A stretch of 64,000 nucleotides of DNA from Escherichia coli O127:H6 str. E2348/69 (GTDB lineage Bacteria > Pseudomonadota > Gammaproteobacteria > Enterobacterales > Enterobacteriaceae): assembly GCF_000026545.1 (NCBI RefSeq), contig NC_011601.1; one strand, 5' to 3'. Positions within the stretch are counted from its first letter, which is position 1, and each line of letters starts with the position of its first letter. The notes beneath the pieces were generated by a model. That model was not told where the DNA came from, searched no databases, and saw only the letters and a list, made by a program, of their open reading frames with translations. The position numbers and the translations under genes were made by a program. Below, one piece after another: positions 60,786 to 62,919 of this stretch.

Positions 60786-61189
60786 TCCCTCATTTCTGGT
60801 GCAAAGTTGAACCGCTTTGCACTATGTATGTTCCCTGAATAGTTAATTATGTTCTGCAGAATATATTATGCGTAAATTAATCATTACGTACGATATATTG
60901 TTTTGGAATAATTATATATCAGTTTAACGCTGAGAAATTATTCGGAATAATCAGAATATGTTAACGTATTTCCGTTATGTTTAATGACTTTTGTCAAATG
61001 ATACCTTTTTAAATAAAAAGTCAGTGGATATTCTTTTCTGTACAGTGTTTTATCTTTGGCGGATCTTATAAATCCCTTATGAAAGTGCCAGGGACGCAAT
61101 GAGCATAAAGGAATGATTATGGAATATGAGCATCAACCCAGTGGTGTCCGGCAGCCAGGGCAGGATACAGATGCCACTAAACGTCAGGA

Positions 61190-61582
61190 GTGCGCAAAAT
61201 GATGCGCCAATCAGTTCAGACGGTATTACCTGAAAGTACAGGAAACAATACGTTATCGCTGCGTGATTCCGTATGCCGGGATCTCTTTCAACTTTTTAGT
61301 TCTCCCCATTCACCGCTACCAATATTACTTGTTTCAGGCATGCCTGAGTGGCAAGGGCATAATCAGAGCGACAAGCTTCTCCAGAGTTGGTATTGCCGCC
61401 AGTTACGTTCCGCGCTTTTATTTCATGAGCCACGTATTGCGGCATTGCAGGTCAATCTGAAAGCAGTCTATTGCCACGAGTTGGTCATTAGTCTGGATAT
61501 GATGCTGTACCACGATGATGAGCCGCTAACGTTTGACCTGGTCTGGCAGAAGGGGAGCTGGCATCGCACGATGCCGCAGTAA
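61190..61582 (+). CDS. iraD: Anti-adapter protein IraD-like
   Basis: 130-aa ORF; position between uxuR and hypT and size match IraD (YjiD); sequence only partly recognised. Confidence 0.6.
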
Positions 61583-61629
61583 ATGACGGGAAACGCGATA
61601 CGCGCAAGACGTATCGCGTTAGGTCACAA

Positions 61630-61971
61630 TTAGTGGGAGGTTCTGATTGCTGCTTTCAAGGCCGGAAGCCGGGACGGACTGGCACTGAGCTTATCAATCC
61701 CCATGGTGAGCAGTCGTGCTGTTTGCTGGGTATCTCCAGCCATTTCGCCGCACATACTGACCGGAATTTCATTATTACGTCCGGCCTGACACACCATAGC
61801 AATAGCGTTAATCACCGCGTCATTACGATAATCGACCAGTTCCGCGACGGTGCTATTTCCTCTGTCTGCCGCCATAATATATTGCGTCAGATCGTTGGTG
61901 CCGATGGAAAAGAAATCGACTTCACTGGCTAATTTTTCTGCAATCATGACTGCAGCAGGAACCTCAATCAT
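61630..61971 (-). pseudogene. C-terminal fragment of a PEP-utilizing enzyme (enzyme I / PEP synthase-like) gene
   Basis: 113-aa ORF containing the PEP-utilizing enzyme signature DFFSIGTNDLTQYIMAADR but lacking the rest of a protein that is normally over 500 aa. Confidence 0.5.
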
Positions 61972-62007
61972 AATTCCCAGCGCCGGAAGATTTTCTGCAG
62001 AAAACTT

Positions 62008-62919
62008 TCAGCCAGGTTCAATCTCCAGCTCGCGCAGTTCACGCCAGAAGCGTTCGGCAACTGGATTCATGCGGGTATTCATCCGGTATGCATAGGCCTG
62101 AATCGGGATTACCAGTTCGTCCCGATTCAGTACAACGAGCTGCCCGCTGCGAATTTCTTGTTGTATGGCGTACTCCGGTAGCCAGGCAATCCCACAGCCG
62201 TCGAGGGCAACCTGCTTTAAAAGCTCGCTCATCGAAGAGACAAAAAAGGTGCTGAAACTCAACTCACTGTGGCGCGTCAGAGTGCGATTAATCAATCGTC
62301 CCATGTAGGAGTTGCGGCTGTAATTCAGTAACGGAAAGTGTGGCTGAGCGAGGTTAAAAAGTGCTTCTCCGTATTCGTCACTGGCGCAGACGGGGAACAA
62401 TTGAGATTCAAATAAGCGGATGTGGTCAAACGGCGCTTCCAGCAAATCTTCGTCGTGAAAGGAAAAAATACAGTCACTTTGCCCTTCGCGCAGTTTATCG
62501 ACCGCTTCATCGACATCAATGGCTTCAATTGCCCAGGTAAAGATCGGCGGCATCTGGCTGATAATGGACGGTAACAGACCGAGGGAAAGAGAGTGTGCAG
62601 CGGCTATCTTGATTTTACGTTGCGCGTAATCGCTGCCGCCACGCAGCTCTGCCAGATTGCTCTCTAACTGTTGCAACAGATGGCGGATCTGCGAATGGAA
62701 GATTTTCCCTTGTTCTGAGAGTTGCAGCGGCGTTACCTGGCGGTTAAATAATTCAACACCAATCGCCTGTTCCAGTGCACGGATGCGGCGGCTGAATGCT
62801 GGTTGCGAGACGTTGCGACTGACTGCCGCCTGGGAAAAATTGCGACATTTTTCCAGGGTCAGAAAATCATAAAGCCATTTGGTTTCAATGTTATGCAAAA
62901 CCGCACCACAGTCATCCAT
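62008..62919 (-). CDS. hypT: LysR-family transcriptional regulator (hypochlorite-responsive HypT)
   Basis: 303-aa product from the Met at 62919 (MDDCGAVLHNIETKWLYDFLTLEK...); LysR HTH; context next to iadA. Confidence 0.8.
   Translation of the reverse strand: MDDCGAVLHNIETKWLYDFLTLEKCRNFSQAAVSRNVSQPAFSRRIRALEQAIGVELFNRQVTPLQLSEQGKIFHSQIRHLLQQLESNLAELRGGSDYAQRKIKIAAAHSLSLGLLPSIISQMPPIFTWAIEAIDVDEAVDKLREGQSDCIFSFHDEDLLEAPFDHIRLFESQLFPVCASDEYGEALFNLAQPHFPLLNYSRNSYMGRLINRTLTRHSELSFSTFFVSSMSELLKQVALDGCGIAWLPEYAIQQEIRSGQLVVLNRDELVIPIQAYAYRMNTRMNPVAERFWRELRELEIEPG

Follow-up and report, generated by a model that had tools for sequence, protein, structure and literature searches.

The 113-aa ORF that separates iraD from hypT in E. 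coli E2348/69 raises a simple question: is it a small gene in its own right or what is left of a large one? A first-pass annotation of the 64,000-nucleotide stretch of DNA analysed here (the window, 100% identical to E. coli E2348/69) had noticed that this ORF carries the signature of PEP-utilizing enzymes and nothing else of such an enzyme, and had taken it for the scar of a deleted PtsI/PpsA-like gene or PTS operon at a convergent junction. The ORF is the already published remnant of the GimA island and, in our reading, very probably a non-functional pseudogene fragment that arose by a single GimA deletion, spread by descent and is now decaying. The features on which this reading relies are collected in Table 1.

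Table 1. Features of the iraD–hypT interval and its flanks in the window
Feature	Position	Strand	Basis
iraD, flank	61199..61582	+	RefSeq annotation, alignment of five alleles
Left end of island-type DNA: iraD stop (61580-61582) and 47-bp spacer	61580..61629		Absent from K-12-type locus
113-aa ORF, the 342-bp 'GimA remnant' of pptE/ptnI	61630..61971	-	ORF list, PF02896, probe primers
ptnI-derived coding sequence, last 123 codons and stop	61630..62000	-	UTI89 match, in-frame translation KFSAENLPALGIMIEVP..., RefSeq pseudogene 61630-62001
Deletion junction, single copy of the 8-bp microhomology TTCTGCAG	61993..62000		UTI89 comparison
hypT-tail patch, 7 substitutions in 18 bp adjoining the junction	62001..62020		Comparison of the window, UTI89 and a K-12-type strain
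hypT, flank, convergent with iraD	62008..62919	-	RefSeq annotation

The domain content of the ORF agrees with the first part of the earlier description. The only Pfam domain found in it is PF02896 (PEP-utilizers_C), of which it matches profile positions 180–290 of 293 (E = 1.6e-40, well outside what chance would give). It thus retains roughly the final third of the PEP-binding barrel rather than the complete TIM barrel (about 293 positions), and it is devoid of the phospho-histidine swivel domain (PF00391) and of the N-terminal HPr-binding domain (PF05524), both of which are present in the full-length UTI89 protein. Compared to the NCBIfam model of PTS enzyme I (TIGR01417), the ORF covers positions 428–537 of 565 only and scores 133.3 bits, below the curated family cut-off of 341.7 bits, and is therefore a fragment. 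Similarly, it aligns with residues 425–540 of the 575-aa E. coli enzyme I structure (2HWG), and the alignment still begins at residue 425 when the 10 upstream codons are added. Within the retained segment, PEP-utilizing enzyme signature 2 (DFFSIGTNDLTQYIMAADR) is present, as is the CGE–AGD catalytic Cys motif, in the form SMCGEMAGD. The RefSeq record of E2348/69 bears out the location at the convergent iraD/hypT junction and describes the fragment as a pseudogene, 'putative PEP-binding protein, missing N-terminus'.

The complete gene is found at the same place in other strains, which supports the interpretation of the ORF as the scar of a deleted PtsI-like gene: UTI89, KFu014 and A3 all carry a full-length 793-aa gene there. 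In UTI89, the iraD–hypT gap is 20,309 bp long and corresponds to the 20.3-kb GimA island, a metabolism and virulence island; it contains genes for PtsP (793 aa), DhaL, DhaK, a glycerol dehydrogenase (gldA), an MFS transporter, an FAD oxidoreductase, a BCCT transporter, a glycerate kinase and a 2-hydroxy-3-oxopropionate reductase, together with hyi, gcl, dhaR, ibeA and nhaC. The first GimA gene, ptnI/pptE (793 aa), ends exactly at the end of the ORF. Comparison with the strains bearing the full-length gene, which the first-pass annotation had proposed as a check, reveals the same stop codon and 98–100% DNA identity over the retained part, with 0–8 differences in 418 bp relative to six full-length alleles. 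The ATG of the ORF is an internal Met codon of ptnI. Aligned base by base with UTI89, the ptnI homology reaches 62000, 10 codons upstream of this ATG, and the ptnI-derived coding sequence, 123 codons plus the stop, is thus longer than the 113-codon ORF. The parent of the remnant is a fusion protein of EIIA(Man), HPr and enzyme I; the full-length UTI89 protein displays EIIA-man, HPr, PEP-utilisers_N and mobile phospho-His domains and a complete PF02896 domain. The remnant has lost the EIIA, HPr, N-terminal and phospho-histidine domains as well as the initial two-thirds of the barrel and therefore cannot act as a phosphotransferase. In E2348/69, the fragment runs straight into hypT, with no dhaKL, gcl cluster or ibeRAT in between. 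The proposed deletion of PTS genes hence stands, but its extent has to be revised: the DNA lost relative to UTI89, 19,884 bp, is larger than a PTS operon and comprises, besides most of ptnI, the dhaL, dhaK and gldA genes, the transporters, gcl–hyi–glxR–glxK, dhaR, ibeA and nhaC. A K-12-type strain has no insert at all, its iraD and hypT genes overlapping by 8 bp.

This allele belongs to a three-state polymorphism that has been known since 2010. Homeier et al. (2010, PLoS One 5:e10877, PMC2878320), who give the composition of the GimA locus as ptnIPKC, cglDTEC, gcxKRCI and ibeRAT, distinguished three patterns between yjiD (iraD) and yjiE (hypT), namely complete GimA, no GimA and a '342 bp remnant of pptE' (pptE being ptnI), and noted that the remnant ORF has an internal ATG and the normal stop. 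They reported the remnant in CFT073, 536 and F11 and found it nearly confined to phylogroup B2 and ST117; E2348/69, an EPEC strain, does not appear in their study. They also associated the remnant with UPEC, speculated on a 'change of function', mentioned a predicted regulatory site upstream of it (data not shown) and proposed that the loci with neither GimA nor the remnant arose from the remnant allele by a second deletion step. Mediati et al. (2018, PMC6206680) mentioned the 0.34-kb remnant and observed filamentation upon over-expression of full-length pptE. The ORF of E2348/69 has all the attributes of this remnant: it lies between iraD and hypT, it consists of the 342-bp 3' end of pptE, and the remaining part of GimA is absent. 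Moreover, the pptE probe primers of Homeier et al. match positions 61630–61650 (0 mismatches) and 61952–61971 (1 mismatch), bracketing the ORF exactly. Neither PMC2878320 nor PMC6206680 describes the ptnI homology up to 62000, the 19,884-bp deletion between the only two copies of TTCTGCAG, the seven-substitution patch in the hypT tail that is exclusive to remnants, or the broken copies in other lineages, to which we now turn.

The window tracks the ptnI side of UTI89 up to position 62000 and its hypT side from position 61993, the overlap being the octamer TTCTGCAG. The UTI89 island interval has exactly two copies of this octamer, one at each deletion endpoint, and the distance between them equals the difference in gap length between UTI89 and the window (20,309 − 425 = 19,884 bp). 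The junction is contained in a perfect 14-bp palindrome, TTTTCTGCAGAAAA, detected as a reverse-strand self-match at 61991–62004. Note that, with the unmodified right side of UTI89, this palindrome would be matched at 12 of 14 positions and that the first substitution of the hypT-tail patch completes it. At the other end of the fragment, the spacer between the convergent iraD and ptnI stops can form a hairpin with an 11-bp stem (61592–61602 pairing with 61610–61620), folding at −25.4 kcal/mol on one strand (z = −5.6) and at −22.4 kcal/mol on the other (z = −5.7). The hairpin is probably a bidirectional transcription terminator shared by iraD and ptnI; a simple terminator scan did not call it. 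It is missing from K-12-type strains.

The history that we favor would be as follows. An ancestor carrying the 20.3-kb GimA locus between iraD and hypT would have undergone a single RecA-independent deletion between the two 8-bp direct repeats, the first of which lies within ptnI/pptE and the second on the island's right edge, 15 bp away from the hypT stop, with the removal of 19,884 bp; the shortness of the direct repeats points to illegitimate recombination, either by slippage or by microhomology end joining. The residue would consist of the iraD stop together with the hairpin of the spacer, the 123 codons at the end of ptnI and a hypT tail that is rewritten locally, and the 113-aa ORF would exist solely because an internal Met codon follows the hypT stop codon. 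The remnant allele would then have spread by descent, probably also by homologous recombination, and would now be decaying slowly.

We surveyed the distribution of the three states in 5,426 complete E. coli genomes. The 3' end of ptnI is present in 511 of them: 246 contain at least 80% of GimA in one piece and 265 display the contiguous iraD–remnant–hypT arrangement, the remaining genomes having neither. A query with the whole island hit at most one place per genome, with 2% of the island covered in remnant genomes, including CFT073. It disclosed no intermediate deletion form, coverage being either 100% or 2% among the matches listed and 2% in all 21 non-GimA+ genomes sampled. In a separate observation, protein P0023 (181 aa, on a 5.1-Mb E. 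coli contig) turned out to be a truncated, frameshifted PptE call reaching well upstream of the remnant boundary, suggesting that at least one GimA+ strain has a broken pptE.

The iraD–hypT locus is a mosaic of haplotypes. The remnant of E2348/69 is identical to the full-length allele of KFu014 and GN03551 at 418 of 418 bases, and the other remnants differ at 5–8 of these sites, the variants being also found in full-length copies. The iraD gene exists as two deeply diverged alleles, K-12-type and island-type, with about 79% DNA identity (compared over 61199–61582 of the window, 2117–2500 of locus L010 and 2100–2492 of locus L003); the last 11 codons of the island-type allele differ from the K-12 type, and KFu014 harbors a hybrid made of a K-12-type body and the island-type last 11 codons. 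Given this divergence and the KFu014 hybrid, the loci of most E. coli, with neither GimA nor the remnant, are not simple second-step deletions of the remnant allele, contrary to the proposal in PMC2878320. Two further observations concern the upstream side of iraD. The uxuR–iraD spacer (60786–60935) lacks about 1.4 kb found in K-12-type strains (yjiC, ytiD and a small ORF); the same 1.4 kb is missing in UTI89, A3, EC12 and Z1323HEC0355 and present in the GimA+ strains KFu014 and GN03551. In addition, the K-12 iraD leader peptide IdlP (MENEHQYSGARCSGQAAYVAKRQECAK) has its diverged counterpart in a 27-codon ORF at 61119–61202 (+), which shares an ATGA overlap with the start of iraD and is unannotated in the RefSeq record of E2348/69.

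The remnant is not limited to the E. coli genomes of our survey. In Escherichia sp. E1V33 (NZ_RHJI01000003.1; positions 5255–5680 of locus L015), a 6.6-kb region collinear with the window at 93.6% identity displays the same remnant, the same junction and the same hypT-tail patch, which means that the remnant allele is either old or has moved across lineage boundaries.

The hypT-tail patch is the feature that bears most directly on the number of deletion events. Its sequence, ACTTTCAGCCAGGTTCAATCTCC, spans the hypT stop (TGA, 62008–62010) and the last three hypT codons, HypT ending in ...EIEPG with the patch versus ...EIVLS. The patch departs from UTI89 and K-12 alike, and the 60 bp beyond it are nearly identical to both. 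A 53-bp query over the junction and the patch retrieved exactly 265 of the 5,426 genomes, all of them in the remnant state; the 246 GimA+ genomes and the roughly 4,900 genomes lacking both GimA and the remnant were all free of the patch. With up to 3 mismatches allowed, neither the UTI89 island nor the rest of the window contained a template for it, and a search for a donor with a 23-mer of the patch in one genome per species gave a single match, Escherichia sp. E1V33, itself a remnant carrier. The exclusive presence of the patch in all 265 remnants argues for one origin. The patch is also a difficulty for our own reading, as a simple microhomology deletion leaves these seven substitutions unexplained.

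The alternative that survives best is that the deletion recurred independently, at the TTCTGCAG microhomology, in different GimA+ lineages. Such events would yield the same junction each time, since the octamer is found at these two places of the island only, and they would agree with the presence in remnant alleles of polymorphisms belonging to different full-length alleles and with the occurrence of the remnant in E1V33, a lineage 6% diverged. However, independent events would not recreate the patch, which is the same in all 265 remnants and in E1V33 and is found nowhere else, and we consider recurrence improbable. A single origin is thus preferred, but because the remnant alleles match different full-length alleles, it calls for later recombination near the junction.

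The hypT stop lies in frame with the ptnI fragment. Furthermore, the exact 113-aa protein falls into a 90%-identity cluster of 3,559 members, the other listed members of which are the 303-aa HypT; this clustering suggests that a fused HypT–fragment gene has been called somewhere, as the result of either a mutation of the stop codon or the reading of TGA as a sense codon by a gene caller. One could imagine that the deletion, the rewriting of the HypT tail (IVLS to IEPG) and the in-frame hypT stop constitute one selected event, which would alter the C-terminus of HypT, a hypochlorite-stress regulator, or give rise to a low-level HypT–PtnI' read-through product. If true, this would explain why the remnant allele is found in half of the island-type loci and in a separate Escherichia lineage, but we regard it as very unlikely.

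Coming back to a single deletion followed by decay, we examined seven E. coli remnants (E2348/69, clone D i2, N1420, 20Ec-P-124, 536, STE15 and 2012C-4502). They share a single junction, are free of indels and keep the ORF intact, and 449 contigs encode the exact 113-aa protein; such a degree of intactness is expected without selection for a 342-bp target of modest age. The variants private to remnants comprise three nonsynonymous changes (V18I, S32A and L38M, the last two falling inside the signature motif) and no synonymous one, whereas those private to the six full-length copies comprise no nonsynonymous and five synonymous changes (Fisher p = 0.018, calculated on only eight private variants). 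Other lineages carry disrupted copies: (i) the E1V33 fragment has a TAT>TAG nonsense mutation and a 1-bp insertion; (ii) a 104-aa form (P0019), present on many contigs of an E. coli lineage 99.2% identical to the window, results from a 1-bp deletion at 61725; (iii) a 106-aa form (P0018) lacks SEVDFFS, owing to an in-frame deletion of seven codons. The first-pass annotation had pointed out that a short ORF conserved and expressed as a stand-alone protein in many strains would speak against a scar. Half of this picture is observed, since the ORF is present in 265 of the 5,426 genomes and intact in all the E. coli remnants inspected. The other half is not: with disruptions in at least three other lineages and private changes that all alter the amino acid sequence, the ORF is not conserved as a protein, and the remnant does not show the intact ORF across diverged lineages with mainly synonymous change that maintenance would leave. 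This behavior fits that of a decaying pseudogene under relaxed constraint.

Signals for the expression of the ORF were equally unremarkable. No promoter-like site was found upstream of the ATG at 61971, the counts being no higher than in shuffled sequences, no canonical terminator was called for the ORF, and no Rfam match was obtained in 61000–62200 at E values up to 1. The Shine–Dalgarno pairing energy at the ORF, −4.2 kcal/mol, is equalled or bettered by 20% of the ATGs in the window. A protein-level search for a conserved stand-alone family yielded for the most part pieces of normal enzyme I genes cut off at contig ends. A single short match was distant and had the same MIEVP start (P0020, 126 aa, 70% identity); it was discarded as a gene-call artefact following an N gap in a full dhaK–dhaL–ptnI–dhaR operon.

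These data also weigh on the idea of a co-option, according to which the fragment would be expressed from a hypT read-through transcript, by initiation at the internal ATG or by read-through of the in-frame TGA, and would have acquired a new role, for instance in uropathogens. The possession of a start and a stop by an ORF that is intact in the seven sampled E. coli remnants, the frame of the hypT stop, the hint of a fused gene call given by the HypT cluster, and the published UPEC association and promoter-prediction remark (PMC2878320) are all compatible with it. Against it stand at least three independent disruptions, private changes that are all nonsynonymous and affect the most conserved motif, the lack of a promoter-like site upstream and a merely average Shine–Dalgarno match, and the fact that no conserved stand-alone family was found, P0020 being an artefact; in addition, independent folding of one third of a TIM barrel is improbable. 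Altogether, co-option appears very unlikely. Finally, a gain, that is, the insertion of a piece of a foreign enzyme I gene between iraD and hypT, could be suggested by the lack of any iraD–hypT spacer in K-12-type strains but is effectively refuted by the collinearity with GimA+ strains, as the fragment and the 47 bp on its left match the end of full-length ptnI with 98–100% identity, at the same position and next to the same iraD tail, its right end joins at a repeat present at the right edge of the intact island, and a truncated gene cannot be the ancestor of a complete one.

The weight of the ORF as a discovery is small, since the three-state polymorphism was published in 2010 and RefSeq already marks the ORF as a truncated pseudogene; the new details are minor and consist of the exact junction, the hypT-tail patch linked to it, the copy in E1V33 and the decayed variants. 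Nevertheless, taken together, the junction, the patch, the E1V33 allele and the decayed copies provide a testable account of island loss. They also have practical consequences: the 113-aa ORF should not be named PEP-protein phosphotransferase, as is the case in some records, and the 53-bp stretch at 61993–62045 provides a simple marker for the remnant allele.

Compared to known systems, the E2348/69 locus most closely resembles the GimA remnant of CFT073, 536 and F11, with which it shares the yjiD/iraD–yjiE/hypT location, the 342-bp ORF, the pptE stop and the internal ATG; the sequences of strain 536 and of the CFT073-like clone D i2 further display the same junction and hypT-tail patch. It differs from the CFT073/536-type remnant in that its allele, which is that of full-length KFu014, departs from it at 5–6 of 418 bases. 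With respect to full-length PptE/PtnI (UTI89, RS218 and APEC O1), the remnant corresponds to residues 671–793, with 98–100% DNA identity and a common stop codon and downstream hairpin, whereas the full-length protein has 793 residues with EIIA(Man), HPr, EI N-terminal, phospho-His and complete PEP-binding domains and is encoded in an operon with dhaL and dhaK, which the remnant lacks. Like E. coli enzyme I (PtsI, PDB code: 2HWG), the remnant retains the IGTNDLTQY signature and the CGE(M/L)AGD motif, which holds the catalytic Cys of enzyme I; unlike it, the remnant is devoid of the counterpart of residues 1–424, i.e. the HPr-binding and phospho-histidine domains and the first part of the barrel, and its score is far under the family cut-off (133 versus 341.7 bits). 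Lastly, DhaM of E. coli K-12, the phosphotransfer subunit of the PEP-dependent dihydroxyacetone kinase, has the same EIIA(Man)–HPr N-terminal architecture and dhaK–dhaL–dhaR neighborhood as the parent protein PtnI. PtnI, however, possesses a complete enzyme I C-terminal half that DhaM lacks, and it is from that half only that the remnant derives.
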